A DNA stretch of 64,000 nt from Candidatus Uhrbacteria bacterium (GTDB lineage: Bacteria; Patescibacteriota; Patescibacteriia; UBA9934; GWF2-40-263): assembly GCA_023246355.1 (NCBI GenBank), contig JAHFIQ010000001.1, positions 286,247 through 350,246 of the forward strand, written 5' to 3'. Numbering within the stretch: the first letter of the stretch is position 1; the number at the start of each line of letters is the position of its first letter. Both the position numbers and the translations under genes were made by a program. This document shows positions 2,616 through 36,253 of this stretch, piece by piece. The notes beneath the pieces were generated by a model. The model ran no database searches. It was not told where the DNA came from and worked only from the letters and a program-made list of their open reading frames with translations.

Positions 2616-2647
2616 AGTGTTATACTCAGCAGCATAACAAAAACCCT

Positions 2648-3085: not shown

Positions 3086-3375
3086 AGCCTACGCAATCGC
3101 CGACGGTAATCGGTTCCAGATTTTTTCATAAAAATATCGATCACCTCAATGATCTGATTGGTGTGAAACAATAAATATAAAACTCTCCATCGTCCAACCC
3201 TCAACCGAAATCCAGGTTCTGAAATGCCTGCGAGTCGTTTAATGTGTGGATGATGAAGAGGATCTTGTGCGAGCCGCTCTAGCTCCGAGAGAATCTCTAC
3301 CTGAGTGGACTTGTCCATTTTCTTGAAAAGACGCTGGACATGTGGCTGATAGGTGATTTGATACACAAGATTCAC
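3082..3375 (-). CDS. RelE/ParE-family type II toxin (mRNA interferase)
   Basis: 97 aa. The core RLRVGRWRVLYLLFHTNQIIEVIDI matches the RelE/ParE fold signature (RiRvGdYRviY...v.v..I.hR). Lies immediately downstream of a small RHH ORF. Confidence 0.75.
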   Translation of the reverse strand: MNLVYQITYQPHVQRLFKKMDKSTQVEILSELERLAQDPLHHPHIKRLAGISEPGFRLRVGRWRVLYLLFHTNQIIEVIDIFMKKSGTDYRRRLRRL

Positions 3376-5616: not shown

Positions 5617-5678
5617 ACCCAGTGATATCCTCCAAGATGACCACTGGGCAGGCGAAATCGAGCACAGACCCCCTCTGA

Positions 5679-5699
5679 CTCCCCCTTGAAAAGGGGGAG
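5679..5699. other. perfect hairpin CTCCCCCTT-GAAA-AGGGGGAG between glmS and the 3D-domain gene
   Basis: 9 bp G/C-rich stem with a GAAA tetraloop about 100 nt downstream of the glmS stop. No U-tract, so it is a possible terminator or RNA stability element. Confidence 0.35.
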
Positions 5700-5794
5700 A
5701 ATTTCGCACTAAACAAAAGCACTTCCTGTGTAGGAAGCGCCTGAATGCTACCATAAAAACGCCTTTTTGTCAACCGATCTATCCCCAGCACCTG

Positions 5795-7750: not shown

Positions 7751-10750
7751 TTGATTTTCGGGTATTCTGAGAGCGACTCTATGTCGACACATCAATACAA
7801 TCGCCAAGGGTGGAGTGGAAGAAGCCGCTCACGCATGGGACGGATGCGATCCTTCACGCGGGGTCTTTCCAAAGGAACACTCATCAAAAACGGAATCCTC
7901 CTGGGAATCGTCTGTCTCTTTGCTGGATCTCTTGGCGTCTTAGGGCTTATGGCCTTTGTGTCAAAAGATCTTCCCAATCCCAACAGTCTCACAGAACGAT
8001 CCATTTCCCAGACAACCAAAATTTACGATCGCACGGGTGAACATGTTCTGTACGAAATCTTTGGCGATGAAAACCGCACACTAAAAAAACTCCAAACCGG
8101 ATTTTGTGGAGATGACGAAAATCTTGAAACAGATGGCAGCGGCATTCCCCTGTTCGCCGTACAAGCAACCATTGCCGCAGAAGACCGAAATTTTTGTGAA
8201 CACGGTGGGTTTGACGTGAAAGGGCTCATCCGTGCCGTGTTTCAAAACCTCATCGGCAATCGCGTGGGCGGTTCCACGCTCACCCAGCAGCTGGTCAAAA
8301 ACGCCATTCTCTCAAATGAAAAAACCATTATCCGTAAAGTGAAGGAACTCATCCTCTCGCTCGCCCTTGAACGTCGGTATTCAAAAGACGAAATTCTCCA
8401 AATCTATTTCAATGAAATCCCTTACGGCTCCACCTACTACGGCATGGAGGCGGCTGCCCAAAATTATTTTGGCATCTCGGTAAACGAACTCACCCTTGCC
8501 CAAGCTGCCACACTGGCAGCGCTTCCAAAAGCTCCCACGACCTACCTCAATAATCCCGATCGTCTTCAAGCGCGACGGGATTACATTTTGGGCGAGATGC
8601 TCGAGCTTGGATTCATTGACCAATCAACGTATGACACAGCCGTGGCCGAGGCCACACCTGTGGATGTTTCGATTACCAATATCGATGCTCCCCACTTTGT
8701 TCTGTACGTGAAAGAACTTCTGGAAGAAACATATGGACGCAGCGAAGTCGAGGAAGGTGGGCTCAAGGTCACCACAACCCTCGACTATGACATGCAGATG
8801 ATCGCAGAAGAAGAGGTAAAAAAAGGAGTGGATGAAAACGTGGAAAAATATGGTCTGACCAACGCCGCTCTGGTGGCGATTGATCCAAAGACCGGACAAA
8901 TCCTTTCCATGGTCGGATCCAAAGATTATTTTGATGATTCAATCGACGGCCAGGTGAACGTTGCCACTCGACTGCGCCAGCCAGGAAGCAGCTTCAAACC
9001 CATTGTCTATACCAAAGCGTTTGAACTTGGCTACACCCCAAACACGGTTCTCTGGGACGTGGAAACAACCTTTCCAACCGTGACCGGTGACTACACACCA
9101 CACAACTACGACGGAAGCGAACATGGTCCCATTCGTATTTTGAATGCGCTGCAACTCTCACTCAATATTCCTGCGGTCAAAATGGTGTACATGGTGGGCG
9201 TGGAAAACGCGCTGGATTTTGCCACCAGCCTTGGCTATACCTCCTTTGGTGACCACTCAGCATTTGGGATGTCTGTGGTGTTGGGTGGCGGCGAGGTGCA
9301 ACTGTTGGAACACACCGCGGCCTATGGTGTGCTCGCCAACGAAGGCGTGAAAAACGAAACCGTTTCCATTTTGAAAGTGGAAGATGCTGATGGTGAAGTC
9401 CTTGAGGAGTGGAAACAAAAAGAAGGGAAACGCGTGATCGACGAAAACATCGCAAGAATGACGAGCTATGTCCTGTCCAACAATGAGGCTCGCACTCCTG
9501 TGTTTGGTGCCAATAGTTATCTTCAGTTGGGTGAGAGACCTGTGGCAGCCAAAACTGGAACCACGAACGATTACCGCGATGGATGGTTGATGGGTTACAC
9601 GCCGTCCTTGGTTGCAGGTGTCTGGGTGGGAAACAACGACAACACTCCCATGAACAAAGCGGGTGGATCGATTGGTGCGGGACCTATCTGGAATGGATTC
9701 ATGAAACGCGTGATGGAAGGAAGGCCCATCGAAACCTTCGCGTCCCCTGAGATCAAACAAACAGGCAAGGCGGTCTTGGACGGTGAGATTGGCTCTACGA
9801 CCGTGACGATCGATCGTGCATCAGGGAAACTGGCAACCGAATACACCCCAGATTCTTATCGTGAAGAAAAAACGTTCGCCCAGTACCATTCTCTTTTGCA
9901 CTACGTGGACCGAGATGATCCACTGGGTCCTGTCCCAGAACATCCTGAAGAAGACGAACAGTACAGCGCCTGGGAAGCAGGCATCCAAACATGGCTTGCA
10001 AAAAAAGCTGCGGAGACTGGTGTGAAAATCTCAAGCGAAGATCCACCAACAGAGGAAGACGACCTGCATGTGCCAGGAAATTTTCCGTCTGTAAAAATTA
10101 CCTCACCTGATAAGAACGATTCCATCGACAGTCGCACACTCACAATGGACATCTCAGCCGATGCTCCGCGTGGTGTGGCGCGAGCTGAGTTCTATATCGA
10201 TGGCCAATATCTTGGTTCTGACTCTGCCTCACCCTACTCCTTGACCACCACGCTTCCCAGCTCTGTGGGCCGTGGTGTGCATACGGTGAAAGCCATCGCC
10301 TACGACGACATTGATAACGCAGGTTCTGACACGGTCACCATCACGGTCAATTCGGAGGGAAGCGACACGAGCTTCGAACTCATTGATCCCAAAAACGGAC
10401 AAAGCATCGAGGCCTCAAGCGCTCCCTACACGATCGTCGTGTCCATTGATGATCCAGAATCGTACCGATCCGTCAGTGTCTACGTTGAATCACTCGGCTC
10501 GGGATCTGAACAACTCATTGGGCAAACCTTGAACCCCAGTTCGCCCTTTCTTACATTCGACTGGACTCTGCCTGAATCTGGCACCTGGGCCTTATCTGCC
10601 CGTGCCTTATCTGAGGACAGATCTGAACTTTCTACGGCTGGAACGTTGGTTGAGATTGTAGAAAAAGCAGAAGCGGATTCGACAACAGAATCCGCTCCAG
10701 AAGACGAAACCGAAATTTTCGTTCCAGAAACGGATTTGAATTTGTTCTAA
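7751..10750 (+). CDS. class A penicillin-binding protein (PBP1A-type transglycosylase/transpeptidase) with about 280 aa C-terminal Ig-like extension
   Basis: TM anchor ILLGIVCLFAGSLGVLGLMAFV. GT51 motifs EDRNFCEHGGFD and GGSTLTQQLVKN. Transpeptidase motifs SSFKP, SLN and KTGTT. The C-terminus has repeated Ig/Big-like segments. The start could be a later Met (7781 or 7835). Confidence 0.9.
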   Translation: MIFGYSESDSMSTHQYNRQGWSGRSRSRMGRMRSFTRGLSKGTLIKNGILLGIVCLFAGSLGVLGLMAFVSKDLPNPNSLTERSISQTTKIYDRTGEHVLYEIFGDENRTLKKLQTGFCGDDENLETDGSGIPLFAVQATIAAEDRNFCEHGGFDVKGLIRAVFQNLIGNRVGGSTLTQQLVKNAILSNEKTIIRKVKELILSLALERRYSKDEILQIYFNEIPYGSTYYGMEAAAQNYFGISVNELTLAQAATLAALPKAPTTYLNNPDRLQARRDYILGEMLELGFIDQSTYDTAVAEATPVDVSITNIDAPHFVLYVKELLEETYGRSEVEEGGLKVTTTLDYDMQMIAEEEVKKGVDENVEKYGLTNAALVAIDPKTGQILSMVGSKDYFDDSIDGQVNVATRLRQPGSSFKPIVYTKAFELGYTPNTVLWDVETTFPTVTGDYTPHNYDGSEHGPIRILNALQLSLNIPAVKMVYMVGVENALDFATSLGYTSFGDHSAFGMSVVLGGGEVQLLEHTAAYGVLANEGVKNETVSILKVEDADGEVLEEWKQKEGKRVIDENIARMTSYVLSNNEARTPVFGANSYLQLGERPVAAKTGTTNDYRDGWLMGYTPSLVAGVWVGNNDNTPMNKAGGSIGAGPIWNGFMKRVMEGRPIETFASPEIKQTGKAVLDGEIGSTTVTIDRASGKLATEYTPDSYREEKTFAQYHSLLHYVDRDDPLGPVPEHPEEDEQYSAWEAGIQTWLAKKAAETGVKISSEDPPTEEDDLHVPGNFPSVKITSPDKNDSIDSRTLTMDISADAPRGVARAEFYIDGQYLGSDSASPYSLTTTLPSSVGRGVHTVKAIAYDDIDNAGSDTVTITVNSEGSDTSFELIDPKNGQSIEASSAPYTIVVSIDDPESYRSVSVYVESLGSGSEQLIGQTLNPSSPFLTFDWTLPESGTWALSARALSEDRSELSTAGTLVEIVEKAEADSTTESAPEDETEIFVPETDLNLF

Positions 10751-15195: not shown

Positions 15196-16033
15196 GAGGT
15201 TTCATGAGCAGAAAAATAAACAGCAGTGTGAAGGCCATCGCGTTTCTCCACGAGGAGCCTAAGTACCACACAGACGCTTGTTCAACCCCCGAGAGCAAGA
15301 GGCTTCCCACAATCGCGCCCGTCATTGATCCAGGACCTCCGATGACCGCGGCGGTAAACCCCTTGATCGCCATCATGACACCCATGTTGGGATCGAGATT
15401 AAACTCAAGCGCATAAAAAATCGCCGCCACGCCTGCCAGAGCGGAACCCAGTGCAAAGGTGAGACGACGGATCTGGCGAGTATCAATTCCAAGCACAGAT
15501 GCCACCACTTCATTGTCAGCGGTCGCCCGCATGGTTTTGCCAAAACGTGTGTGGGTTGAAAGAAGGTGAAGAAGAAAAAAGATCACAACGGTCGTGGCCA
15601 TCAGAAGAAGCTGAAGTGTTGTGACATGAGCGCCAACAATCACGTGAACCTGGCTTGAGAAACCAAGCGATTGATTCTGCCCGCCGAAAATCGCAATGAT
15701 GAGCGCACCTGAGATCATCAAAAGAGCGATCGTGGCAATGAGATACCCAAGCCCTTTGGAATTTCGCCGCCTGAGTGGTTCGTAGACAAGTTCGTTCATG
15801 ACCAGTCCCAAGACCGTGCTTGTCACGATTGCCATGAGCGCGGATAAAACGATATTCCATGAAAGGACGGAGGTGGTAAACCAAAACGCGTACGCAGACA
15901 AAGCAATCACCCCGCCGTGAGCCAAATGAAACACCCGCGTGGTTGAATAAATGAAAACAAGCCCAGAGGCGAGCAGTGCATAAATACAAGCAGCGATGAG
16001 GCCATGAAAGACGAGCTCGACAAAAACATCCAT
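15167..16033 (-). CDS. livH: branched-chain amino acid ABC transporter permease
   Basis: 288 aa, multi-TM, LivH-like. Overlaps livM by 29 nt. Confidence 0.85.
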   Translation of the reverse strand: MDVFVELVFHGLIAACIYALLASGLVFIYSTTRVFHLAHGGVIALSAYAFWFTTSVLSWNIVLSALMAIVTSTVLGLVMNELVYEPLRRRNSKGLGYLIATIALLMISGALIIAIFGGQNQSLGFSSQVHVIVGAHVTTLQLLLMATTVVIFFLLHLLSTHTRFGKTMRATADNEVVASVLGIDTRQIRRLTFALGSALAGVAAIFYALEFNLDPNMGVMMAIKGFTAAVIGGPGSMTGAIVGSLLLSGVEQASVWYLGSSWRNAMAFTLLFIFLLMKPHGLFGRRFS

Positions 16034-16090
16034 AGTGGGTCTATCCTAGCAAATACAAAAGACGAGAGCCATTGCCCTCGTCTTTTTTTC

Positions 16091-17257
16091 TTACTTTGTT
16101 GTTTCAACTTCTGGCACCACGTTGGCTTGTGCTTGCAAAGGCACAAGCGCACCACTAATCGCCTGAACGAGGGTCAGTTCTACTTCAGCGTCTCCGTTCT
16201 CATCAAAGTTGAATGTCCCAATCGCACCTGGCCAATCAACGACCTGGTAGCCGAAGTAGCCAGCCACAGCCTCTGCGTCTTCTCCAACGCTTCCAACTGC
16301 CTCTGCGAGCAGGTAGACGCTGTCATAGGCAGAGGCGGTGTAGGCCACGAACTCAGGCGAGTTGCCATACATCGCCTCGTAGGCAGTAAGCATGTCGACC
16401 GCCTTCCCTTCGCTTGGCAACTGAACCTCAGCCATCACAACTTCTTCATACAAAGATGGGTTCGCCGCGATCGCTGATCGGTCGATCATGGCGTTATTGG
16501 CAAACACGGCCACGTTCATGCCTGATTCGGCAATCTGTTTCAAGATGAGTTCTCCAGCGGCTGGACTCTGAGGACTCACGTAGACCATCTGGGGATTGGC
16601 CGCGCGCAACTTGGTAATCAGCGTTCGAAAATCTGTTTCACCGGAGTTGAATGTCTCATCAAAAACAACTTCTCCTGTGTAGGACGCCTTGAATGCATTT
16701 CTCACGCCTTGGGCAAAATCTGTTGTCTCTGAAATAATCGCCGCGCGCATCTGACCGGTGGACTCAGCATAGCTTGCTACCATCTTGGCTTCAAAATCAT
16801 CAGAAGGATAGGTGCGGAACACCAGATCTCCTGCGTCTGTGATGTCAGGGCTGGTGGCAGAAGGCGAGAGCAAGAGCACACGGGCGGCCTGCGTAATGGG
16901 TGCAGCAGCAAGGGTTTCTCCAGAGCAGGTTCCACCCAAAATAAACTTGACCCCATCCACACTCACGAGCTTCTGTGTGGCTGTGGTGGCCGCCGCCCCA
17001 TCGCATTTGGAATCTTCGTACACGAGTTCGATATTTTTGCCGTTTACGCCACCAGCGGCATTGATCTGTGAGACCGCAAGATCATAGGCGCGCTGCATGG
17101 CTGTCCCATAGCTTGCTGCGTCCCCGGTGAGCGGGGTGAGCACACCGACTTTGAGTGTTCCTCCTGATCCGCCCGTTGCAGAAAAATACACGAAACCGAG
17201 CACGATAAGGACGATTCCGATCGTCCACAGAAGGGCGTTGTTGTTCTTTTCGGCCAT
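16091..17257 (-). CDS. livK: branched-chain amino acid ABC transporter substrate-binding protein (PBP type 1)
   Basis: 388 aa. N-terminal membrane anchor, then LKVGVLTPLTGDAASYGTAMQRAYDLAVSQINAAGGVNGKNIELVYEDSKCD, typical of Leu/Ile/Val-binding proteins. Confidence 0.85.
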   Translation of the reverse strand: MAEKNNNALLWTIGIVLIVLGFVYFSATGGSGGTLKVGVLTPLTGDAASYGTAMQRAYDLAVSQINAAGGVNGKNIELVYEDSKCDGAAATTATQKLVSVDGVKFILGGTCSGETLAAAPITQAARVLLLSPSATSPDITDAGDLVFRTYPSDDFEAKMVASYAESTGQMRAAIISETTDFAQGVRNAFKASYTGEVVFDETFNSGETDFRTLITKLRAANPQMVYVSPQSPAAGELILKQIAESGMNVAVFANNAMIDRSAIAANPSLYEEVVMAEVQLPSEGKAVDMLTAYEAMYGNSPEFVAYTASAYDSVYLLAEAVGSVGEDAEAVAGYFGYQVVDWPGAIGTFNFDENGDAEVELTLVQAISGALVPLQAQANVVPEVETTK

Positions 17258-22597: not shown

Positions 22598-23071
22598 CTA
22601 GTGGGCTTGGGCGTTCACGTGAGCTTCGCCGACTTCTCTTGCAATGTGGGCAGCGTAGGAAGCGACTTGTTGGCGCGAGGCGCCGAAGTGCTGCTGCAAG
22701 GCCGTAGAGATTTCATGCCAGTGAGGAGTCTTGGCAAGCCGGGGGTACCACTCATGGATGAACGCACGGCCTACCGTTTGGAAGGCGGTTCTGTCCATGG
22801 CGCTCACCTGAGCCTTGAGCTCGTTGAGCTGCGCTCTCTTGATCGAACGGCCTACCGGAAGCGGCACGACGCCTTTTCTGCGACGCGGTTTCGTTGTCAC
22901 CGCGTCTGCGGGCTCCGTGGTCGGCGCAGGGGATGCTTCAGCAGTTGACTGTGCGAGTTCGGAGATGATGGCTGTTTGCTCCGTTTCCAGAGCTTGAAGT
23001 CGAGCGATGAGACACACACGCTCTTGTCCGATGTTTTTCAGACGATCGAGCTGATCCTTTCGCGTAGGCAT
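22598..23071 (-). CDS. hypothetical protein (island gene 1; coiled-coil N-terminus, possible HTH C-terminus)
   Basis: 157 aa, no recognisable family. GC-rich codon usage. Confidence 0.5.
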   Translation of the reverse strand: MPTRKDQLDRLKNIGQERVCLIARLQALETEQTAIISELAQSTAEASPAPTTEPADAVTTKPRRRKGVVPLPVGRSIKRAQLNELKAQVSAMDRTAFQTVGRAFIHEWYPRLAKTPHWHEISTALQQHFGASRQQVASYAAHIAREVGEAHVNAQAH

Positions 23072-23088
23072 GGGGACTCCGTGAGTTC

Positions 23089-24123
23089 CTACCTTGGGAG
23101 GTAAGTTGAGACTCTGCCAGAGGGAGAGACAAATGTCAATGGACTGCGGCTGTAGAGCTGCCAGAGTTGTTCGGCGACCACGGTGATGGCGATAGGAGAA
23201 CTCAGTCTTCCCAAGGTGAGAATCCAGGTGGACATCCGATTGTTGCCGCCTGAGCGATAGAGCACTCGTTCAATCGTGAGCGGAAACAGTGGCGTCCGAC
23301 ATTCACTCAACAAGGGTCTGAGATGCGGTTCGTCAAAAAAACGGAACGATCTTTCTTTCGCAAGTGACTGGATGCGTGAAGCGGTCTGGTACATGTCTCC
23401 CAATATTTTTGAGAGATCACCATGGACAGCGACATCGAGTGCGCCGCTTCCCTCTGTCGGACTCGTGAAGAGGGTGAGGCCGATCAGCACCCGCCACAGG
23501 ATTCCGAAATCTCGACAGAACTGTGCGTGAGGAAGGACTTCTTCATGGGAGTTGCCGCGAAGGTAGGGACGCAGCTGATCGAACAGCCCATCAAGGCTTG
23601 TTCGCACACGTCCTTCCAAGATGGAATCAAAGGCGTTTGCAAACACGACTCCTGATTCGATGGATTCGGGATCCATTCCGGCAAAGGTGGTCATGCACAG
23701 GAGTCCTCCTCTGCTTCCCGGGAAGACACGGAAGAGTCGGATGATCTCGTCCGCGCAGGTATTCACCTGACCCTCGAAGTCAGCATTCGCGATCGAAAGT
23801 CTTGGTCCATCTGCGTGCGCGTGGTGATCGATCCACTGTGCCAGGGTTCCGTGGAAGATATGTCTGTCGCCAGACATTTTTTCGATGATCTTTTGGTGGC
23901 GTTCCACTGGATGAGTGATGACGCGGCGTTCAAGATAACGCGGACCTTCCAGATCCTGGACGCCTGGAAAGTAGACAACGTGTAGCGGTTCGCGATGTCT
24001 GCCTATGAGCATTCGGTCGATCGCGGCAAAATACCACGACCGAACCCAGTTCTTGGCTGGATTGTCGTAGTCTTGCACGAATCCTCCGATCCCAGTTGGG
24101 ACAGAGGATTTCATCAGAATCAT
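23089..24123 (-). CDS. hypothetical protein (island gene 2)
   Basis: 344 aa ORF in the GC-rich segment. No motif I can name; His-rich stretch HGTLAQWIDHHAHADG. Confidence 0.5.
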   Translation of the reverse strand: MILMKSSVPTGIGGFVQDYDNPAKNWVRSWYFAAIDRMLIGRHREPLHVVYFPGVQDLEGPRYLERRVITHPVERHQKIIEKMSGDRHIFHGTLAQWIDHHAHADGPRLSIANADFEGQVNTCADEIIRLFRVFPGSRGGLLCMTTFAGMDPESIESGVVFANAFDSILEGRVRTSLDGLFDQLRPYLRGNSHEEVLPHAQFCRDFGILWRVLIGLTLFTSPTEGSGALDVAVHGDLSKILGDMYQTASRIQSLAKERSFRFFDEPHLRPLLSECRTPLFPLTIERVLYRSGGNNRMSTWILTLGRLSSPIAITVVAEQLWQLYSRSPLTFVSPSGRVSTYLPR

Positions 24124-24223
24124 GATAGAAAGTCAATTGTCTGTGCTTGACAGAGATGGTATGTTGCCCTAGGGTAGTCGGTCTTGCACGCGGTCGTGTA
24201 AGAACAACTTCAGGGAGGTTTCC

Positions 24224-25834
24224 ATGGGCAGTCGCAACCGTCGATTGTTGGACAGGCTCGGAAGGCAGGACGCATCGTTCAAGCTGGGAGATGCGCTCCC
24301 GAAAGCTGTGAAGGAGCAACTCGGCGTTGATCCAAAGGCACCAACAGGAAAGGTAACGCCCCCATCTTTGACGGTAGGGCATGCCGCTCGAGTCCTTTCG
24401 ATCATCGAACAGGGCGATCCGCGCATGTTGGCAGCTCACTTGCTTTCAGGCGACGTTGCTGTACACGACATTCCACCTCGACTCATGCAAGCCGTGCTTG
24501 GCTGCGTGAGGCGGCATCACAAGGCTGTCACCGATCGCGACGACGAAACGATTCGGCAGCAGCGCGAAGCCCTGGAAGCACTCAACAGAGCAGCACGTGA
24601 ACGCGACGAGTCTCGTGCTTCGACTGAGTCTGACGTTGCTCGTCAGCGCCGTACAGCGCAGGAGATGGGACGTCAAGTGGGCGATCTTCATCGCGATCTC
24701 GAGCAAGCACGTCTGAAGATTGGAGAGTTGGAGCAATCGTTGCGCACATCGCAATCCGAAGCCTCTGATCTCAGAGCAGACCTCGCAGCTGCAAAAGAAG
24801 AACAGCTCGGCGACACCGAGGGCGCGATTTTCCGCCGCTTTCTGGATCTCGTGAATGTGCAGGTGGCACAGTGGCTCACGGATCGAGAAGGGCTCTTTCG
24901 AAAAGCGGAGTCTCTGTGCTCACGTTTGGAAGAGAGGGCTGGTCAGGCCGACGATCTGCTGTTGGAAGTGAAAGCGTGTGTGGAGGATGCCGAGGCCGCA
25001 CAGGTGGAGAGAGTCTTTGAGGGAGATGAGAGAGATTGGATCGCCTTCATCGACAAGGTTGAGCAGATGCGAAGGTTCCTGAGTGAACACTCCGCGATCA
25101 TCCAGGAAGTTCAGCGTCTGAGTCAGCAACGATCTGAATGTACTGATGCCTACGAAGGGCTCGATCGCAAAGGCAAGGAACTTACATTCCAGATTCACTC
25201 CGTGGTCGAGGCCTTTTCCTTGATCGGCGTGGACATCTTCGCTCGCGCAGGGTTGAATCCAGATCTGCTTGATTCCCTGGGAGCATCCGATCGGGTGGTG
25301 AAGCTCATGATGCAGGCGATCCCTGCTCAAGAGTTGTCAGAGGATTGGACACAGCGTATAGAAGCGCTCCAATCGCACATCTTGGTGGCCAAGCCAAAGA
25401 GGGCAGGCAAGAAAGAGCCTGCGCCCGAGCCCGCCCAAGTTCAGTTCTTTCCAGGCAGGATCTTCATGGTCGAGCCTGAACGCGAAGTGGAGAGGCTCGT
25501 GGGGATTCTTCTTCACGAGTTGCATGCGGCTGGATTTACCAACGCGTTGTTTCCAGGTGAGATCGCCTTGCTTCTCATGCGCTCAGGTCTCACAAACCTT
25601 GCGCGTGAGCCAATGACTAGTGAGGTGACGGTGGCTTGCCAAGCGCTCATTGGTCGGGGGCTCATCAGTCGTCATCCACGTTTTATGGAGGACGTCCAGA
25701 TCACAGGAAAGGCATTTGCTGCGCGTGATGTCTTCACGGCTCAGTACGCTCGAGTCGAGTTGGCTCAAGTGGGAGGTCGGCATGGAGAGAAACTGTGCGA
25801 GAAGTTGAGGAGGGTCATCCCAACCAAGGCGTAA
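24224..25834 (+). CDS. hypothetical coiled-coil protein (island gene 3)
   Basis: 536 aa, a long E/R/Q-rich predicted coiled-coil centre (residues about 100-330), no Walker motif. Confidence 0.5.
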   Translation: MGSRNRRLLDRLGRQDASFKLGDALPKAVKEQLGVDPKAPTGKVTPPSLTVGHAARVLSIIEQGDPRMLAAHLLSGDVAVHDIPPRLMQAVLGCVRRHHKAVTDRDDETIRQQREALEALNRAARERDESRASTESDVARQRRTAQEMGRQVGDLHRDLEQARLKIGELEQSLRTSQSEASDLRADLAAAKEEQLGDTEGAIFRRFLDLVNVQVAQWLTDREGLFRKAESLCSRLEERAGQADDLLLEVKACVEDAEAAQVERVFEGDERDWIAFIDKVEQMRRFLSEHSAIIQEVQRLSQQRSECTDAYEGLDRKGKELTFQIHSVVEAFSLIGVDIFARAGLNPDLLDSLGASDRVVKLMMQAIPAQELSEDWTQRIEALQSHILVAKPKRAGKKEPAPEPAQVQFFPGRIFMVEPEREVERLVGILLHELHAAGFTNALFPGEIALLLMRSGLTNLAREPMTSEVTVACQALIGRGLISRHPRFMEDVQITGKAFAARDVFTAQYARVELAQVGGRHGEKLCEKLRRVIPTKA

Positions 25835-25924
25835 TACGAGTGGAAGGGTCACGCACACCCTTCCTTTTATTTTTGTGTCAAAAAGAAAAGTCGTCGAGTT
25901 TTCGTCGACGACCGTGCGTTGTTT

Positions 25925-27955
25925 CTACGTCTGGTGGATGCGAGCCATGATGGTGTCGCGCTTGCGCAGCACATCCATCATGTTCACGGGAACGCGATTT
26001 CCTTCCTGCTTCGCGGCTCGCTCACACAGCATGATCGCCATGTGAGTGACCACCTCGTGATTGACCAGCAGGTCGAGCGACCCGGCTCGGTCTTTCTTGG
26101 CTGCCTGGGCTTCAGGTGCCGCGAAGTTGAACCAGATCGTGCACCTGGTGTCTCCAGCCGGGACAAACATCGCGAGTTTGGTGCGCTGATTTTTCTGCTC
26201 AGCAAACGGGAGAGACGTGATCGTGAAGGTGACACCGTCGACGACGAGCACCTTTTTCAAGACGGCCGTTCCAGGTCCGTCGCCGGTACGAGGCTTGGCC
26301 GTTCGCACGCTCAAGCGTGCTTCAGCTTTACTTCCGTCGCTGGCCTTGCACGTAATCGTGTAGTTGCCAGGTTCCATGGGCGCGGTGACTTCTGCACTGC
26401 GCGTGTCATCACTCATCCGGATTCGGCCTTTCTCCGTGGTCGTCCAAGTGAGGCCAGACTTGCCGTCGTCGTTGACCACACGCACTGTCCCGGTCTCACC
26501 TGGCTCCAGAACCAACTCACGCGGAGAGAGCGTGAAGGCGAGTTCCTGGTCGAGTCGGATTTCGCAGACAGCGCTTGGGGTGATCTCCTCCCCTTCAGAT
26601 GCGTGTCCAACGAGTTTCATCTTGTACCGGCGACCTTCTTCCTTCCCAGCCCGATAGGTGATCTGGGTGGGACCGGTGAGAGTCGCGGTCGCTTTTGCGC
26701 CCGAGAGCCACTTGTCATCCACCAGGATCGAGCCACCGGACTGCGTAGCATCGAGCTCGCAGATGTCTTCTGCCCCCGCGTTCAAGACCTGAAAGACGAA
26801 GGTTGTCCCGCATACGAGCGTTACTCGTGCCGGCTTGAATGCCAAGGCGGTCGTGGGCGTGCGAGGCGGCGGGACATTGACCTGCGTCGTCTCTCCCACC
26901 TTCTCGATGAGCCTCTGGACCACGCGCTCAATGACTTCGTCAGACGCACCTTCTACTTGCGTGTCCAGGCGAGCCCTACGGCGGATTTCCGGAAGCAGGG
27001 TGCTGTGCACGTGTTGGACCACAAGCTTGAAGCTCGGATCCTTGAATAGCAGGGGCTTGAAGAAGCGGCGGGTATGCTCTCCTTCGAAGTTTTTCCATGC
27101 ATGCACACGAATCATGAACCAGACGTTGGGGTGCAGGAGCTCTGGCGCCAGACCAGCCTCCAGACGCCCCAGTTGGTCCAAGAGTTCCGAGTGGCTGCAC
27201 ACATGCGCGCCCCAGGTTCCCCAGGAACGGTCCTGGTCTTTCACCTGGTCGTCGGCAAATCCGGCGATGATCTCCACTTGCCCCACACCCGGGACTTCAT
27301 CCTGGGCACGGTAGAACTCCCCTTTGGGAAAGTCGATGCGCGGCTTTTCGCCGTTGATCGTGATCATGTCCAGCTGCCAGGGCGAGAGGACACGTGCGAT
27401 GTTGCGCAGGACCTCGCCAGGCAGCACGCGGATGGCGGACTTGCCTTGCCAAGGTTTGGTGAGGCGAATCACCGTGCCGGTTCCCTTCACGCGGGCACCG
27501 GAGGTGGACTTGGGGATCTTGTTGGTCTTGATGCCGCCGCTTGCGCCCGTCTGCGAAGCTTTCCAAGCCTCGTCGTGGGAGTAGCTCAGGTGATGGCAAT
27601 CGGGGTCCTCCGACCAAGCCGTCCAGACATCCATGTGGTCAAAAGCGAGCCAGAGGGCCGTGTGACCTGTGCCGTTTTCCCCAATGGTTGAATCATCGCC
27701 TTGCTTGGACGATTCGGCCATGCCGATGAACTCAGGCCATACCTGCCGGCGCATGCCCATGCCATTGTCTTCGAACTGGAGGAATTCTCCATGCCGGTCG
27801 ATGGTGATGTCGATCTTGGTTGCTCGCGCATCCACGGCGTTCGTGATCCCTTGACCGACGATCCCTGAGGGAGTGATGGCCACACCCAGGCCCATCTTGC
27901 GAAACGATGAAGCGCCAAGTTTTCCACGGACAAGTTCGTTGGTGGCAGAAGCCAT
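25925..27955 (-). CDS. GHKL-superfamily ATPase (HATPase_c_3 / MORC-Hsp90-like N-terminal domain) with C-terminal Ig-like repeats (island gene 4)
   Basis: 676 aa. Bergerat-fold motifs: N-box ITNAVDARATKIDITID, G1 box FEDNGMGM, G2 box IGENGTGHTALW. The C-terminal 250 aa contain beta-rich repeats (GETGTVRVVNDDGKSGLTW...; GNYTITCKASDGSKAEARLSV). The long opposite-strand ORF is the usual high-GC artefact. Confidence 0.65.
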   Translation of the reverse strand: MASATNELVRGKLGASSFRKMGLGVAITPSGIVGQGITNAVDARATKIDITIDRHGEFLQFEDNGMGMRRQVWPEFIGMAESSKQGDDSTIGENGTGHTALWLAFDHMDVWTAWSEDPDCHHLSYSHDEAWKASQTGASGGIKTNKIPKSTSGARVKGTGTVIRLTKPWQGKSAIRVLPGEVLRNIARVLSPWQLDMITINGEKPRIDFPKGEFYRAQDEVPGVGQVEIIAGFADDQVKDQDRSWGTWGAHVCSHSELLDQLGRLEAGLAPELLHPNVWFMIRVHAWKNFEGEHTRRFFKPLLFKDPSFKLVVQHVHSTLLPEIRRRARLDTQVEGASDEVIERVVQRLIEKVGETTQVNVPPPRTPTTALAFKPARVTLVCGTTFVFQVLNAGAEDICELDATQSGGSILVDDKWLSGAKATATLTGPTQITYRAGKEEGRRYKMKLVGHASEGEEITPSAVCEIRLDQELAFTLSPRELVLEPGETGTVRVVNDDGKSGLTWTTTEKGRIRMSDDTRSAEVTAPMEPGNYTITCKASDGSKAEARLSVRTAKPRTGDGPGTAVLKKVLVVDGVTFTITSLPFAEQKNQRTKLAMFVPAGDTRCTIWFNFAAPEAQAAKKDRAGSLDLLVNHEVVTHMAIMLCERAAKQEGNRVPVNMMDVLRKRDTIMARIHQT

Positions 27956-28075
27956 GATGGCTGTCTCCTGTGAAGAGGTGATACCTCACAAGCGCGAAAT
28001 CGCTTATGAAGTTCCATCAGAGGTTGTCCTTTGACGACCACTGGTGGAATAGCGAGAGGAGCTCTCTCGCAGCCG

Positions 28076-29359
28076 TTAGGATTTGATGTCGTCCAGATCC
28101 CCTCCACCCAATCCTGTTGCCGTGACTCTCATGTCCAGGAACATGCTTGGCAAGTCTTCGTCTGCCACATCCATATGCCTGATGTGAATGGACATTTCAT
28201 CAAAGGCGTGACGCAGACGTCGCAGGACTGCCCGCTTGTCGTTATGTTCCATCGAGTTGATTTGCGCCAGACGCCTTGTGAGTTCACCGATGAGATTCGC
28301 AGTGTCATCAACCTCGTCGAGGCTGAACACAGCTTCACGTTTGAACGAAGCGGCCGTGAGCACAAACCGCATGCCGCTGACCACCTCACCCGGATCATCC
28401 GTCTTTCCTGCGGGTGGTGAAGAGCGTCGTGCACGAAGTTCCGCGATGATCCCTTCCAGTCCACGAGTGAGAATCTCTTCTATCGTGGAAGGTTCCTCAT
28501 TCGGTTTTTCGACTGGTTGTACGGGGGTTCGAATTCCTTGATGCGGCATCACCGTGGTAGTCACGGTCGCAGAAGTTCTCTCTGCGCTCAACCATTCGGG
28601 GAATGCGATTTGGATCGCACGCAGAAGGGTTTCGAACTTTTCACGCGAGGGTCGCTGGCCCTTTCGCCAGTCGATCAGGAGCGTTGCGCTGAAGACCTGT
28701 TCGCCAAGGCCGCCGTTGAGCTTCTTGGCAATGTGATCGACGCGTTCATGTGGGACCTGCTTGGTCATCCACGTTTTGAACGCGTTGTCGCCTACGAGCT
28801 CAGGGATGCGTTCACACCCTCGGCCGAAGACGTTCCACTGCCCTTCCATGTAGAAGAGGGTGTCGCTTCCCCAGGTTTGTCTTTCACCTCCACTGCGAGC
28901 GTCTTCTGTGCAGAAACGGATGATCGCCACGATGTTCTCGAAGCCCGGGAGACTCTTTGCATCTTTGTTACAGAACGAGTCAAGCTCGGTCCCATCAAAG
29001 AACATGCGAGAGAGTTGTTTGTCCCCGCCGATTCTCTCGATGTAGGGACGCAGCAGGCCAACAACGTCCTGCCGTGTTTTGACCTCTGGGAACCAGTCCC
29101 TTGTGGGGTCCACGGCCTTCTTGGCCATGTCCACCCACGTTGTTCCAACGTCGATGTCCACGGCAGTGAGCTTTCTTTGGATCCTTGGCGATTGGAGGGA
29201 GAACCGAACCTTTTTGCTCAGCTCGCCTTCCGCCTGGATCATGCTGTAGAGGTTGTCCAGTCCTGCAATTCGCAGGGCTGATGTGCGCTTGGGTTCCGGT
29301 TGCGCGGCTACCCAGGCTTCCAGTTGTTCGAGGACTGTACGTCCTTGGGGAGCAGGCAT
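28076..29359 (-). CDS. hypothetical protein (island gene 5), immediately downstream of and co-oriented with... divergent from gene 6
   Basis: I placed the start at MPAPQGRTVLEQLEAW, preceded by AAGGAGATCCA-ATG (good SD). 427 aa with no recognisable domain. The ORF-track N-terminal 75 aa extension lacks an SD and overlaps the divergent gene. Confidence 0.5.
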   Translation of the reverse strand: MPAPQGRTVLEQLEAWVAAQPEPKRTSALRIAGLDNLYSMIQAEGELSKKVRFSLQSPRIQRKLTAVDIDVGTTWVDMAKKAVDPTRDWFPEVKTRQDVVGLLRPYIERIGGDKQLSRMFFDGTELDSFCNKDAKSLPGFENIVAIIRFCTEDARSGGERQTWGSDTLFYMEGQWNVFGRGCERIPELVGDNAFKTWMTKQVPHERVDHIAKKLNGGLGEQVFSATLLIDWRKGQRPSREKFETLLRAIQIAFPEWLSAERTSATVTTTVMPHQGIRTPVQPVEKPNEEPSTIEEILTRGLEGIIAELRARRSSPPAGKTDDPGEVVSGMRFVLTAASFKREAVFSLDEVDDTANLIGELTRRLAQINSMEHNDKRAVLRRLRHAFDEMSIHIRHMDVADEDLPSMFLDMRVTATGLGGGDLDDIKS

Positions 29360-29521
29360 TGGATCTCCTTGGGTCTTTTTCCTCAGGTTTTGGTCTGAAT
29401 GAGGACAGGTCAGAGTAAAAGAAACAGTTCTGAATGTCAAGATTAGCCGCTTGACGGGATCACGGCAAGGTGATTCACTGTTCCCCTTGCGACGAGCAAG
29501 AAACCCCTTCAGGAGTCGAGC

Positions 29522-30694
29522 ATGTCTTCTCCCCCTTTGGCAGAGCCCGCGTCTGTTGATCCCGCCAAGCCCATTGATACCCACCCATGCTACTTCTGGT
29601 GCTGGGTCGAGGCTGTTCGACGATACTGGGATTCCAAGCGTGGATCCGATACGCCGTTGAATGCCAGGGTAGATTTCTACCCGATCATCTTTCGCTACTA
29701 CAAACCAAGGGTCGACACGAAGAAACCGAACCCTTCTGTCTATCTGTCGTACATGAAGAAGGCGGGGATGATTCGCAGGTTCGGAGCAGACGCTGGTGAC
29801 TCAGGTCGTGGAAGGGATACATTCTACGTTCCCGAGACAGAGATCACGCTGCGCGTTGGCGGGAAGGTGGTCTACACGCCAAGAGATCTTGATGCCCTGC
29901 TGGAGGGTGATGAGCGGTTCCAGCCTCCCAGTGAGGTGGTGGAGCCGGCATCTGAGGGCGAGCCGCCTGATGCTGATGCAGGTGACGATGGCGGCGGGGC
30001 AGCAGATGAGGCCGATCCTCCCGCGGCTGAGCCAGCGGTGAAGGAGAAAAAGCGTCGCAACAGGCAGAGGAGTCCGGAGCAGAATGCCTTGGTCGGCAAG
30101 CTTGTGAAAGTCCTGTGGGCAGCGGCAGAGCCAACGGACGATCCAGCCTGGCGCGTGATCGCGAAATCCGCGGCCAGAGACCATGCGGTGCGAGAGTGCG
30201 GACATGTTCTGCACTACACCACGCTCTTTCGACTCGGTTTCCTGAAGTCAGGGGCAGATCACGAAACGTGTCTCATCACGGATCCCAACGCAGGTTTCCG
30301 TGAGGCGCTGGCCGCTCCGAAGCGGGGACAGAATCCTGAACAGCCGGCGGAGACTTCCGTGTGTGGCTCTTCCAGTCTGTCCATCGAGCAGATCAGTGCC
30401 AGGATCACTGAACGCGAGGCAAGCTTCAGCACACAGGAGCTGGAAGATGAGCGCGCCGTCGTGCTGCGGGATGTCACGGCAAAACGTGCAGAGCTCGCCG
30501 CGATTGATGAGACACGTCTGCGTCTGCGTGAAGAGCTGCGAGGGCTTGAGACTTCTAGTGAGGCGCTGGCCGCCCAAATCGAGACTCGTATGATGCAGCG
30601 CCAGCAGGATCCCCTGCTTCTGGATCTGAATTGGGCGCGCGACAATTTCGAGCGACTCCAAAGGGTGCTGGCAGATTCTGTACCCAAGAGTTAA
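29522..30694 (+). CDS. hypothetical protein with acidic low-complexity linker and C-terminal coiled coil (island gene 6)
   Basis: 390 aa. The N-terminal about 110 aa form a basic/aromatic, possibly DNA-binding domain (PCYFWCWVEAVRRYWDSKRG...). D/E/G-rich linker, KKRRNRQR, and a coiled-coil C-terminus. Confidence 0.5.
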   Translation: MSSPPLAEPASVDPAKPIDTHPCYFWCWVEAVRRYWDSKRGSDTPLNARVDFYPIIFRYYKPRVDTKKPNPSVYLSYMKKAGMIRRFGADAGDSGRGRDTFYVPETEITLRVGGKVVYTPRDLDALLEGDERFQPPSEVVEPASEGEPPDADAGDDGGGAADEADPPAAEPAVKEKKRRNRQRSPEQNALVGKLVKVLWAAAEPTDDPAWRVIAKSAARDHAVRECGHVLHYTTLFRLGFLKSGADHETCLITDPNAGFREALAAPKRGQNPEQPAETSVCGSSSLSIEQISARITEREASFSTQELEDERAVVLRDVTAKRAELAAIDETRLRLREELRGLETSSEALAAQIETRMMQRQQDPLLLDLNWARDNFERLQRVLADSVPKS

Positions 30695-30738
30695 GACACG
30701 ACCCGTTCGCTCTCTGCGACCGGGTTTTCAAATTCAAA

Positions 30739-30767
30739 ACACCCCAGCAGACCGGGGTGTTTTTTTG
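30739..30767. terminator. bidirectional rho-independent terminator (ACACCCC-agcagac-CGGGGTGT + T7) between island gene 6 and hppA
   Basis: 8 bp G/C stem with TTTTTTT downstream on plus. On the minus strand the stem is followed by TTTTGAATTT. Confidence 0.75.
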
Positions 30768-30768
30768 T

Positions 30769-32745
30769 TTAGACGATCAAGGCAACGATGAGCAGAGCGA
30801 CGATGTTCAAAATTTTGATCATCGGGTTTAGGGCTGGGCCGGCAGTGTCTTTGTACGGGTCGCCCACCGTGTCGCCTGTGACAGCGGCTTTGTGTGCATT
30901 GCTTCCCTTGCCGCCGAAGTGACCAGCTTCAATATATTTTTTGGCATTGTCCCAGGCGCCGCCGCCAGTGGTCATCGAGATGGCGACGAACAGTCCGGTG
31001 ATAATGGAACCGATGAGCAAACCGCCCAAGGCTTCAGCTCCCAGTCCAAATCCTACAACGATCGGTGCAAGCACGGCCAAGAGGGACGGGGCGATCATGT
31101 ACTTGATCGCACGAGTCGTGACGATGTCGACAGCCTTGCCGTACTCAGGTTTGCCTGTGCCATCCATGATGCCTGGAATTTCACGAAACTGTCGTCGGAC
31201 TTCTTCTACGACTGCGCCAGCGGCTTTTCCAACCGCCTCCATGGCCATAGCGCCGAACAAATAGCTCACAAGTCCTCCCAAGAAAAGGCCCGCGATTACA
31301 TGTGGATCAACCAAGTTGAAAATGATGTGCGTGCCAGTGGCTTCGATCGTGTGAACGTAGTCGCCAAACAGTACGAGTGTGGCAAGTCCTGCTGAACCAA
31401 TGGCGTAGGCCTTCGTCACAGCTTTTGTGGTGTTGCCAACCGCGTCCAGGGGATCGGTAATGGCGCGGACTTCCTCTGGCAGGTCGGCCATTTCAGCAAT
31501 GCCTCCTGCGTTGTCGGTGATCGGACCATAGGCATCGATGGCGACAATGATTCCGGTGAGCGACAACATTGCCACAGCCGCAATCGCAATGCCGTAGAGA
31601 CCAGCAAGGTTGTAGGCGATGAGGATTCCAAGGACAATGGTGAGAACAGGCAGAGCTGTGGCTTTCATGGAAAGCGCAATGCCTGCGATGATGTTGGTCC
31701 CGTGACCGGACTGTGAAGCCTCAGCGAGTTTTTGCACGGGTTTGTATTCCGTGGCTGTGTAGTATTCGGTGATCATGATGAGGAGCGCTGTGATGACGAG
31801 TCCAAGCACGCCACAGAAGAAGAGTTCCTGGCTGTTCTCAAACATGAAAAGATTTGTCACAAACCAGAAGCCAATGCCTGCAAAGATTCCTGCGGCGGCG
31901 AGGCCTTTGTAGAGCGCACCCATGATGTTTTTTGTGGTGCCAAGTTTGATGAAGAAGGTTCCCAGAATAGACGCAATGATGGCGACGGCACCAAGGGCAA
32001 GTGGATACAAGACAAGACCTTCGTCACTCGAGAGAAGACTTCCCAAGACCATGGTGGCCACCAGGGTCACTGCGTATGTTTCAAAAAGATCAGCGGCCAT
32101 GCCAGCGCAGTCGCCGACGTTGTCGCCGACGTTATCCGCAATCACGGCTGGGTTGCGTGGATCGTCTTCGGGAATATTGGCTTCTGTTTTTCCAACGAGG
32201 TCTGCACCGACATCAGCAGCCTTTGTGAAGATACCCCCGCCAAGTCGCGCGAATACAGAGATCAGTGAGCCACCAAATCCAAGTCCAATGAGGGCACCCA
32301 CGTCTTGGGTTACAAAGAAAAATCCAGCAACACCCAACAGCGCAAGTCCCACCACAAGAAGTCCTGTGACCGTTCCGCCTTTGACCGCGACGTCCAGTGC
32401 TTCAGCCAGTCCTTTTTTTGCTGCCTCGGTGGTACGGACATTCGCACGCACAGAAACGCTCATGCCGACAAATCCAGCCACGCCAGAGAGAACAGCTCCT
32501 ACGAGAAATCCAACGGCGAGCGTCCAATCGAGCACGAGGCCCAGCAGGACAAAAATAATCACGCCAATCACGGCGATCACTTTGTACTGACGAGCGAGAT
32601 AGGCGTTTGCCCCTTCTTGAATAGCAAGGGCAATGCCTTTCATTTTTCCTTCCCCGGCAGGCTGCTTCAAAATCCATTGAGTCAGAACAGCTCCCCAGAG
32701 AATCGCGAGAATTCCGGCCGCGATGGCGTAGAGTATAATGGGCAT
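30769..32745 (-). CDS. hppA: membrane-bound proton/sodium-translocating pyrophosphatase
   Basis: 658 aa, about 16 TM. Conserved H+-PPase motifs GGG(I/L)[24 protein letters not shown] and [13 protein letters not shown]. Confidence 0.95.
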
Positions 32746-35803: not shown

Positions 35804-36253
35804 TCAAACCAAGAAAACATTCACCCACTTGGTTAACCCAAGTTCTTCAACCAAAGACTGCATCAATTCACTTACATCGTTCTTCGTTGTCCAGACACTT
35901 CGTTGTGCCATCGTAAATCCAGCTTTTTTCAAAAAGTTTCTCAGTTTGTTTCGAAGATGTCTTACGTCCTCAGGGATATCAAAACTCACGATGGTCGTGC
36001 GACCGTCAGGATGCTCCCGTTTCACTAACAGGATTTTCTCCCGAGTGAGTCTTGCCTGTCCTTTGCTGCTTAGTTTCAGTTCTGCGCCATAGCTGGTTTC
36101 ATAAATATCAGAACACCCCTCTTCCAAGAGTTGAATTTGGCGTTTGAGTTGTTCTACATACGCTGTTCGTCTCCAGCTATCAGGTGCAACTTGGTTGAAA
36201 TGTCGCTGAGCATTGTGGAGCTTTTTTGTTGTCGGAATATGCATGTTATCCAT
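35804..36253 (-). CDS. hypothetical protein, translationally coupled to comM; C-terminal half has a Cas2/VapD-like beta-alpha-beta pattern (weak)
   Basis: 149 aa. TIVSFDIPEDVRHLRNKLRNFLKKAGFTMAQRSVWT resembles the Cas2 core (v.sYDv...rrrkl.k.L..yG.rvQ.SVf). Overlaps the comM stop by 8 nt. No CRISPR array anywhere in the window. Confidence 0.35.
   Translation of the reverse strand: MDNMHIPTTKKLHNAQRHFNQVAPDSWRRTAYVEQLKRQIQLLEEGCSDIYETSYGAELKLSSKGQARLTREKILLVKREHPDGRTTIVSFDIPEDVRHLRNKLRNFLKKAGFTMAQRSVWTTKNDVSELMQSLVEELGLTKWVNVFLV

Follow-up and report, generated by a model that had tools for sequence, protein, structure and literature searches.

Prokaryotic MORC and paraMORC ATPases of the GHKL superfamily occur in restriction-modification-like operons, and a role in DNA looping has been proposed for those of MORC type (Iyer, Abhiman and Aravind 2008, PMC2292703). 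Here we describe a GHKL-ATPase locus in a 64,000-nucleotide (nt) stretch of DNA from a Candidatus Uhrbacteria bacterium (contig JAHFIQ010000001.1, positions 286,247 to 350,246; hereafter the window), with emphasis on two divergent genes, gene 5 and gene 6, that lie beside the ATPase gene. The window is an origin-proximal genome region carrying dnaN, dnaA, rnpA, yidD, and tig, and between tig and the gene for an H+-pyrophosphatase (H+-PPase) is an island of six genes, encoding a 157-residue protein, a 329-residue protein, a 536-residue coiled-coil protein whose convergent gene we refer to as cc, the GHKL ATPase, and the products of genes 5 and 6. This module spans positions 22598 to 30694 (∼8.1 kb) and is ∼2.5 kb from dnaA and the rnpA-yidD region. 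The 90%-identity cluster of the DnaA protein has among its members one named Candidatus Uhrbacteria. The divergent pair as such is ordinary; what is new is the module around it, which is a rare, undescribed variant of GHKL-ATPase multigene systems and is confined to a Candidatus Uhrbacteria-like (Patescibacteria) lineage. We consider it fairly probable that genes 5 and 6 are components of this module, with gene 5 coding for a co-transcribed partner of the ATPase and gene 6 for a DNA-binding scaffold.

The window was compared with eight distinct related loci (L006, L008, L009, and L011 to L015) and with two distant GHKL loci (L016 and L017). A gene 6 homologue is adjacent to and divergent from gene 5 in nine of nine loci (the window included), whose proteins are 27 to 63% identical; the GHKL gene follows gene 5 in all seven loci whose contig reaches that far, and cc and the 329-157 gene pair come next wherever sequence is available. 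The GHKL protein of L015 is 31% identical to that of the window, and profiles recover all six module proteins there (gene 5, E = 1.5e-84; gene 6 N-domain, 1.1e-13; cc, 2e-50; the 329-residue protein, 4.5e-73; the 157-residue protein, 2e-8). Module proteins of the window and L015 are 25 to 36% identical, whereas in the flanks the identity is 88% for H+-PPase, 76% for cupin, and 68% for LysM-M23, and the module has therefore been inherited at, or exchanged into, one site while evolving much faster than its neighbors, diverging three to four times as fast. Its G+C content is 0.57, versus 0.50 in the flanks, and the difference goes in the same direction in all related loci with an informative flank.

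In the distant locus L016, the stop codon of a gene for a 350-residue partner overlaps the GHKL start by 4 nt, and a convergent gene for a 676-residue protein follows, with a 621-residue gene and a SNF2-methyltransferase fusion gene further on. In L017, a gene for a 297-residue partner and the GHKL gene (27 nt apart) are followed by a convergent gene for a 505-residue coiled-coil protein and then by a TrwB/TraG-like gene. Gene 6, cc, and the 329- and 157-residue proteins are undetectable by profile in both. An earlier interpretation of this DNA, made from its letters (the sequence-only reading), had tied genes 5 and 6 to the neighboring ATPase gene (gene 4), and the three do co-occur in every related locus, whereas the two most distant GHKL loci lack gene 6. 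As judged by sequence comparison, the minimal conserved pair consists of the GHKL gene and, ahead of it, a gene whose protein has the gene 5 C-terminal domain.

Gene 5 and the GHKL ATPase

Gene 5 (28076 to 29359, minus strand, 427 residues) and the GHKL gene (25925 to 27955, minus strand, 676 residues) are always adjacent and on the same strand. There is no conserved promoter in the gap between them, and strong terminators are present solely after the GHKL gene, cc, and gene 6, that of the GHKL gene being an intrinsic terminator read from the sequence at 25880 to 25912 (minus strand; GTCGTCGAC-loop-TCGACGAC, then TTTTCTTTTT). These signals agree with the operon proposed in the sequence-only reading, and the open reading frames, translations, and spacer likewise bear out a divergent gene 5/gene 6 pair across 162 nt, as does the spacer sequence the proposed Shine-Dalgarno site of gene 5, which is AAGGAG (29365 to 29370, minus strand) 5 nt before the ATG (AAGGAG-ATCCA-ATG). 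The placement of gene 5 downstream of the GHKL gene has to be reversed: since transcription of both genes runs on the minus strand, gene 5 is the first, upstream cistron and the GHKL gene the second, and the 162-nt region therefore carries the promoter of the gene 5-GHKL operon. Gene 5 starts at the ATG at 29359, where the N-termini of all nine homologues begin, and a longer 502-residue open reading frame from a GTG at 29584 is ruled out as the gene.

The 120-nt gap between the two genes (27956 to 28075) folds into three hairpins, which form a structured intercistronic RNA on the minus strand at 27984 to 28070. P1 (28070 to 28052) is directly after the gene 5 stop codon, P2 (28049 to 28012) has the conserved base UUCCA...UGGAA, and P3 occupies 28011 to 27984. 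RNAalifold over six loci gives 28 pairs, 11 of which have compensatory changes; 97.5% of the cells are paired, compared with 32 to 46% when partners are slid by 1 to 3 columns, and the covariation score of 0.438, versus 0.163 in shuffles, was reached by 0 of 500. We assign the structure to the mRNA strand because of its G.U pairs and the scores of a covariance model (118 bits sense, 29 antisense). The model finds no second copy within the window, and Rfam gives no match, either at gathering score across the window or at E ≤ 1 within 27800 to 29700; this small covarying element, absent from Rfam, is new. P1 of L015 is a hairpin of canonical terminator-like form with UCUUUUU behind it, and the window has a weak tail (UAUUCC). 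Gene 5 and the GHKL gene are probably co-transcribed with the intercistronic RNA tuning the gene 5:GHKL ratio, which it would set through partial termination or attenuation, processing, or stabilization. In L006 (11366 to 11420), P2 is expanded to ∼25 perfect base pairs, and the folding energy of the whole gap is -85 kcal/mol, versus -54 kcal/mol in the window.

The gene 5 family is tiny, with nine homologous clusters among 5.8 billion, one of the homologues deriving from a Patescibacteria metagenome-assembled genome. From an AlphaFold2 model together with family comparison, the protein is predicted to have an all-alpha N-domain (residues 1 to 258), a disordered linker (259 to 320), and a helical C-domain (321 to 421), with residues 260 to 354 appearing disordered in the model itself. 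The N-domain is modeled confidently (predicted local distance difference test [pLDDT], ∼90) and is without a structural relative, in that Foldseek searches of the model against PDB and BFVD returned nothing at E below 0.5, and phage XRE/cI entries in BFVD have probabilities of 0.33 to 0.41 and E above 1. Two assignments were considered and rejected. One is a kleisin of the JetA/MukF type, for which 8as8_E and 9gm7_C appear only at E = 2 to 6 with template-modeling (TM) scores of 0.07 to 0.08, and the other is a Cro/C1 (XRE) helix-turn-helix (HTH) in the N-domain, for which the window protein has no Pfam match. The C-domain is found in the GHKL partners of both L016 and L017, by hhalign (95%, E = 2e-8, and 91%, E = 9e-7) and by hmmsearch (2.6e-9 and 1.9e-8). 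The L017 partner has a Cro/C1-type HTH at its N-terminus (HTH_26, E = 1.7e-4), and hhalign of gene 5 with this partner aligns the C-domain alone. Because it is the sole part kept in the partners of distant GHKL relatives, the C-terminal helical domain of ∼100 residues is probably the part that docks onto the ATPase, and would constitute a conserved docking domain of GHKL partners. The N-terminal part may be an exchangeable specificity or DNA-binding module, because the minimal conserved pair consists of a protein with the C-domain, then the GHKL gene.

The GHKL protein matches Pfam HATPase_c_3 (E = 1.4e-9, above the cutoff), and its best solved relative is the MutL N-terminus in the PDB (E = 0.003). 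Its N-terminal Bergerat fold has the motifs N39, D63xGxG67, and G92xxGxG97, and residues N39, D63/G65/G67, and G92/G95/G97 are invariant or nearly so in 32 relatives, such that the ATP-binding motifs of the GHKL superfamily are all present. At the general-base position, which precedes the N-box Asn by four residues, the window has Gln35 (codon at 27853 to 27855), and the 32 relatives have Gln in 22 cases and Glu in 10. Gln at this position points to a switch that binds ATP but hydrolyzes little or none of it, and this usual replacement of the catalytic Glu makes the family notable. It has 63 representatives in 1.84 billion proteins, nearly all of 630 to 710 residues and matching over their full length, and HATPase_c_3 is present in all 32 aligned members. 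The Bergerat fold is followed by a conserved middle region and by two immunoglobulin (Ig)-like domains at ∼375 to 560, for which the Pfam Big_2 and Cupredoxin matches are weak. Residues 170 to 360, where a MORC or paraMORC protein would be expected to have an S5-fold domain behind the GHKL domain, give no sequence-level match in Pfam or PDB. We note that the segment from residue ∼375 to 676 (25925 to 26830) comprises this Ig-like (Big_2/cupredoxin-like) pair and then a further conserved C-terminal region, and that Ig-like C-terminal domains are unusual in a cytosolic GHKL protein.

Gene 6 and the control region

Gene 6 (29522 to 30694, plus strand) codes for 390 residues, as supported by its translation and family alignments, is preceded by the Shine-Dalgarno sequence AGGAG (29511 to 29515, plus strand; AGGAG-N6-ATG), and is followed by an intrinsic terminator (30736 to 30763, plus strand) with a 10-bp stem and then a T run. 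Its family comprises seven clusters among 5.8 billion. The AlphaFold2 model, predicted from a seven-sequence alignment and with an overall pLDDT of 75.5, has a winged-helix-like N-domain (residues 1 to 137), an acidic disordered linker (138 to 172), a basic arm and second winged-helix domain (173 to 256), a further linker, and a C-terminal coiled coil (288 to 386). The N-domain has an isoelectric point (pI) of 8.9 and is 13% F/W/Y, the acidic linker has a pI of 4.05 and pLDDT below 50, the basic patch KEKKRRNRQR is at ∼174 to 183, and a long helix at 305 to 362 has a pLDDT of ∼97; the sequence-only description of a basic aromatic N-domain, acidic linker, basic patch, and coiled-coil tail thus holds. 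Residues 185 to 253 have the canonical H-E-H-H-E-E winged-helix order (H, helix; E, strand) with pLDDT 87 to 93 (H185-201, E210-214, H215-226, H230-237, E241-243, and E249-253), and the N-domain has three helices and then a beta-hairpin wing, plus an additional hairpin and helix (elements H22-35, H48-59, H71-81, E84-87, and E101-104).

The top 50 Foldseek matches for gene 6 are dominated by winged-helix domains, and include those of ORC4, ORC2, and Cdc6, the cullin WHB, CRP/CooA, BlaI, PadR, and MukE, with probabilities up to 0.91 and TM scores of 0.5 to 0.64 on small targets. The winged helix for which the sequence-only reading proposed to look is therefore seen twice in the predicted topology and at the top of the Foldseek matches, but the best of these is at E = 0.084. 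Pfam, NCBIfam, PADLOC, and PHROG give no family match for gene 6, and a profile search of the PDB gives coiled-coil noise only. We conclude with moderate confidence that gene 6 carries a predicted DNA-binding (winged-helix) fold. In the family alignment the second winged-helix domain is dispensable, being missing in L006 and L012 and doubled in L008, and in L015 it is replaced by a different winged-helix-like segment. Gene 6 and cc were also considered as paralogues, which hhalign rejects.

The spacer between genes 5 and 6 (29360 to 29521, 162 nt) was aligned across eight loci, and contains two predicted promoters with their -35 boxes back to back, 10 nt apart. That of gene 5 (29412 to 29440, minus strand) has -35 TTGACA (29440 to 29435), a 17-nt spacer, and -10 TACTCT (29417 to 29412), and that of gene 6 (29451 to 29479, plus strand) has -35 TTGACG (29451 to 29456), a 17-nt spacer, TG at 29471 to 29472, and -10 TTCACT (29474 to 29479). 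The gene 5 pattern TTGACA-N17-TAnnnT is present in eight of eight aligned loci with TGTCAA (29435 to 29440) invariant, and the CTTGAC (29450 to 29455) and extended -10 GTGrTTyACT of the gene 6 promoter are kept in all eight. These TTGACA-17-TAnnnT promoters were recognized by comparative alignment; a generic promoter scan of 27900 to 30800 found no promoter, both -10 boxes being below the threshold of that tool. Promoters of the type TTGAC-N18-T..A.T are also upstream of the tig and H+-PPase genes, and the module promoters are therefore ordinary host promoters.

At the predicted transcription start (+1) of gene 6 is an inverted repeat, CTTGC-GACGA-GCAAG (29486 to 29500, plus strand), which could be a 5' stem-loop or an operator. 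The pattern CTTGC-N-GCAAG is in all eight close loci of the alignment, each time beginning 6 nt beyond the -10 box and with its arms 5, 5, 5, 6, 7, 7, 9, and 9 nt apart, and occurs twice in the window versus 0.86 times expected by chance. Half-sites at a fixed spacing, as expected of the operator of an autoregulated repressor, are not seen in the control region. The predicted gene 5 mRNA has a 5' hairpin of its own, UCCUCA-N14-UGAGGA (29380 to 29405, minus strand), with UCCUCA/UGAGGA present in the window, L011, L013, and L014; L012 has CCCUUUG/CAAAGGG in its place, and L009 a C/G-rich stem. The cc mRNA 5' hairpin, CUUGCAC-GCGGUC-GUGUAAG (24186 to 24205, plus strand), opens with CTTGC, as does the gene 6 repeat, and at one of its pairs the window and L009 have G.U where L012 has G-C. 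A hairpin follows all four module promoters, and the tig and H+-PPase promoters are without one. The inverted repeat looks more like a 5'-terminal mRNA stem-loop than a dimer operator, because its spacer varies from 5 to 9 nt, it sits at the predicted +1, and its cc analogue pairs through G.U. A search for palindromic operators, as proposed in the sequence-only reading, thus yields one conserved palindrome, but with a variable spacer and stem-loop features, and the suggestion that gene 6 regulates the neighboring operon loses ground, since the sole palindrome fits a 5' RNA stem-loop better. Binding of the repeat by the second winged-helix domain is rejected, as L006 and L012 keep the repeat although the domain is missing there. 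The repeat is not found in L015, where a gene 6 homologue exists; L015 has instead a CUCC-UAAA-GGAG hairpin (8261 to 8290) overlapping the Shine-Dalgarno sequence of that homologue.

Other genes of the module and its surroundings

The module has four transcription units (gene 6, gene 5-GHKL, cc, and 329-157), which are predicted to be driven by two pairs of back-to-back sigma-70-type promoters. The second divergent pair (24108 to 24205, both strands) lies between the gene for the 329-residue protein and cc, and has the same back-to-back -35 layout, with TTGACT (24136 to 24131) and -10 TGAAAT (24113 to 24108) for the former on the minus strand and TTGACA (24148 to 24153) and -10 TAGGGT for cc on the plus strand. 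The convergent position of cc (24224 to 25834, plus strand) is conserved in all loci, and searches with its protein return matches of coiled-coil type only. Its terminator (25842 to 25875) is convergent to that of the GHKL gene, and we note that the region from 25842 to 25912 holds two convergent intrinsic terminators between these genes with an A/T-rich center common to both. The genes for the 329-residue protein (23089 to 24078, minus strand) and the 157-residue protein (22598 to 23071, minus strand), the latter being the last gene of its unit, are both kept in L009 and L015. The 329-residue protein has no Pfam or PDB match, and hhalign finds no relation to the 621-residue protein of L016. 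By eye, it has a methyltransferase-like Rossmann order (VVYFPG..., HPVE, FHGT, ANADFEG), which has no tool support and is not claimed here.

For all module proteins together, Pfam, NCBIfam, PADLOC, and PHROGs return the GHKL domain and coiled-coil noise and nothing more, and sequence and profile searches of the PDB with gene 5, gene 6, cc, and the 329-residue protein give no match. A Joint Genome Institute (JGI) metagenome scan returned an already known contig and no other. The evidence suggests that the junction between the H+-PPase gene and gene 6 is an insertion-prone site. Extra, unrelated open reading frames are present at this junction in L006 (140 and 173 residues; 7941 to 8917) and in L015 (492 residues; 5426 to 6904). 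Genes of toxin-antitoxin type are near the module in L013 (BrnT/CopG, 2608 to 3145) and L015 (MazE/PIN, 15856 to 16425), and the window has, within a few kilobases of the module, a gene (35804 to 36253) for a 146-residue protein with PaaX_M and weak Cas2-like similarity.

Possible functions and relation to described systems

In the reading that we prefer for genes 5 and 6, the gene 5 C-domain would dock onto the GHKL protein, and the clade-specific all-alpha N-domain, whose position is held by the Cro/C1-type HTH in L017, would supply target or sensor specificity. Gene 6 would dimerize via its coiled coil, bind nucleic acid, and act with the ATPase complex as a DNA-binding scaffold, and it may also regulate transcription. 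Control of the gene 5/gene 6 pair looks to be largely post-transcriptional, through the predicted 5' stem-loop on every module mRNA and the intercistronic RNA. For the module as a whole, a role in conflict or defense is our leading interpretation, because of its rapid divergence, its distinct G+C content, the insertions at the H+-PPase junction, and the toxin-antitoxin neighbors, together with the SNF2-methyltransferase or TraG-like neighbors of distant relatives, and because the association of MORC/paraMORC proteins with restriction-modification-like operons fits (PMC2292703). More specifically, we propose tentatively, as a possibility that we would not yet call probable, that the cluster is an undescribed nucleoprotein system of Patescibacteria, either for defense against phages or mobile elements or as a chromatin-like device, built on a hydrolysis-impaired GHKL switch. 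This switch would be coupled via the gene 5 C-domain to the all-alpha specificity domain, and also to the coiled-coil/winged-helix DNA binders, with the intercistronic RNA setting stoichiometry. Bacteria of the candidate phyla radiation have tiny genomes with few recognized defense or chromosome-organizing systems, and an 8-kb module that is kept at one site yet diverges fast is likely to be important in genetic conflict or genome handling.

Several observations weigh against these interpretations. Each comparison is backed by only six to nine distinct sequences, and none of the module proteins in the window has a detectable effector, nuclease, or helicase domain, or a match to any other family. 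GHKL alignments found no relatives in GTDB representative genomes (two scans) or in IMG/VR (one scan), and tblastn of the GHKL protein, gene 5, and gene 6 gave no match in phage and plasmid collections. The Foldseek E-values for gene 6 are all at least 0.08, giving support at the level of fold only, and no HTH family in Pfam matches gene 6 by sequence, isolated domains included. The gene 5 C-domain is modeled poorly by AlphaFold2 (pLDDT 43 to 61), and the case for docking is thus one of conservation alone. Finally, the module is at the same chromosomal site in related species, which is less typical of mobile defense islands.

Gene 6 could also be a winged-helix transcription factor that recognizes two related sites, CTTGC-N-GCAAG at the +1 of its own gene and, at the cc promoter, CTTGCAC..GTGTAAG, repressing itself and/or its neighbors, although we regard this as unlikely. 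Divergent regulator-operon layouts are common, and two predicted winged-helix domains, a basic arm, and a dimerizing coiled coil would suit a repressor, as would repeat arms that are invariant in eight of eight loci and overlap the predicted start (a classic repressor position) and the similar CTTGC-initiated repeat at the cc promoter. However, a spacer that ranges from 5 to 9 nt would turn one half-site relative to the other by over 100 degrees, the G.U wobble through which the cc analogue keeps its pairing would be a mismatch in DNA, and the gene 5 promoter bears a different hairpin that covaries between clades. Retention of the repeat in the two loci without the second winged-helix domain, and its absence from L015 in spite of gene 6 being there, also argue against binding by gene 6, and a 390-residue protein with a 100-residue coiled coil is large for a simple repressor.

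The main alternative to conflict or defense is an origin-proximal role in chromosome organization or segregation, in which the GHKL protein, like MORC proteins, would act as a clamp on DNA or form loops in it, gene 6 and cc serving as anchors and gene 5 as a bridge. The short distance to dnaA and the rnpA-yidD region, the single chromosomal site in related species, and the presence of two coiled-coil proteins and predicted winged-helix domains are consistent with such a device, as is the DNA looping proposed for MORC-type proteins (PMC2292703). Against this, the module diverges far faster than its flanks, an unusual pattern for chromosome machinery with a housekeeping role, the family is extremely rare, its distant relatives are elsewhere, beside a SNF2-methyltransferase or TraG-like gene, and the gene 5 Foldseek matches to JetABC and MukBEF entries are noise; we give this explanation little credence. 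That genes 5 and 6 are unrelated neighbors of the ATPase gene by fortuitous adjacency is barely credible: neither protein has a recognized domain linking it to GHKL biology, but order and orientation are kept in nine of nine loci despite the divergence of their proteins, and the gene 5 C-domain accompanies the GHKL gene even in the distant loci.

The nearest described systems resemble the module in part. No literature linking GHKL proteins with Patescibacteria, or Tiamat with GHKL proteins, was found. Tiamat (TmtA) is a single-gene anti-phage system in PADLOC, whereas the module GHKL proteins are 650 to 700 residues long and come with partner genes in every case; PADLOC gives no TmtA match for the window protein, matches in the wider family are weak (10 of 32 members, best E = 1.6e-7), and those in L016 and L017 cover ∼70 residues of profiles of ∼1500 positions, corresponding to the shared GHKL core, so that Tiamat is rejected as an assignment. 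Like MORC and paraMORC proteins, the module ATPase has an N-terminal HATPase_c_3-type Bergerat ATPase with intact ATP motifs, a middle region, and a family-specific C-terminal extension, in multigene neighborhoods of sporadic distribution, of which that in L016 adjoins the SNF2-methyltransferase fusion gene. It differs in that no superfamily II (SFII) helicase, nuclease, or methylase is detected in the window module, the general-base Glu expected of an active ATPase is Gln (Q35), the C-terminal extension consists of Ig-like domains, and the partners (gene 5, gene 6, cc, 329, and 157) are without described families. Gene 6 shares with winged-helix and coiled-coil proteins such as ORC/Cdc6, repressors of the BlaI/PadR type, and MukE the H-E-H-H-E-E order with a basic arm before the second domain, but it is outside their sequence families, and its combination of two predicted winged-helix domains, an acidic linker, and a 100-residue coiled coil matches no single described regulator. 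Some stem-loops at the 5' ends of mRNAs protect transcripts, as in Escherichia coli ompA and the leader hairpins of Bacillus. The module hairpins similarly begin close to the predicted +1, a few nucleotides away at most, on each of the four transcripts, with loops that vary in length and pairing that is kept by covariation or G.U, but their +1 sites are predicted and the gene 6 stem is invariant, such that it may be recognized in a sequence-specific manner.

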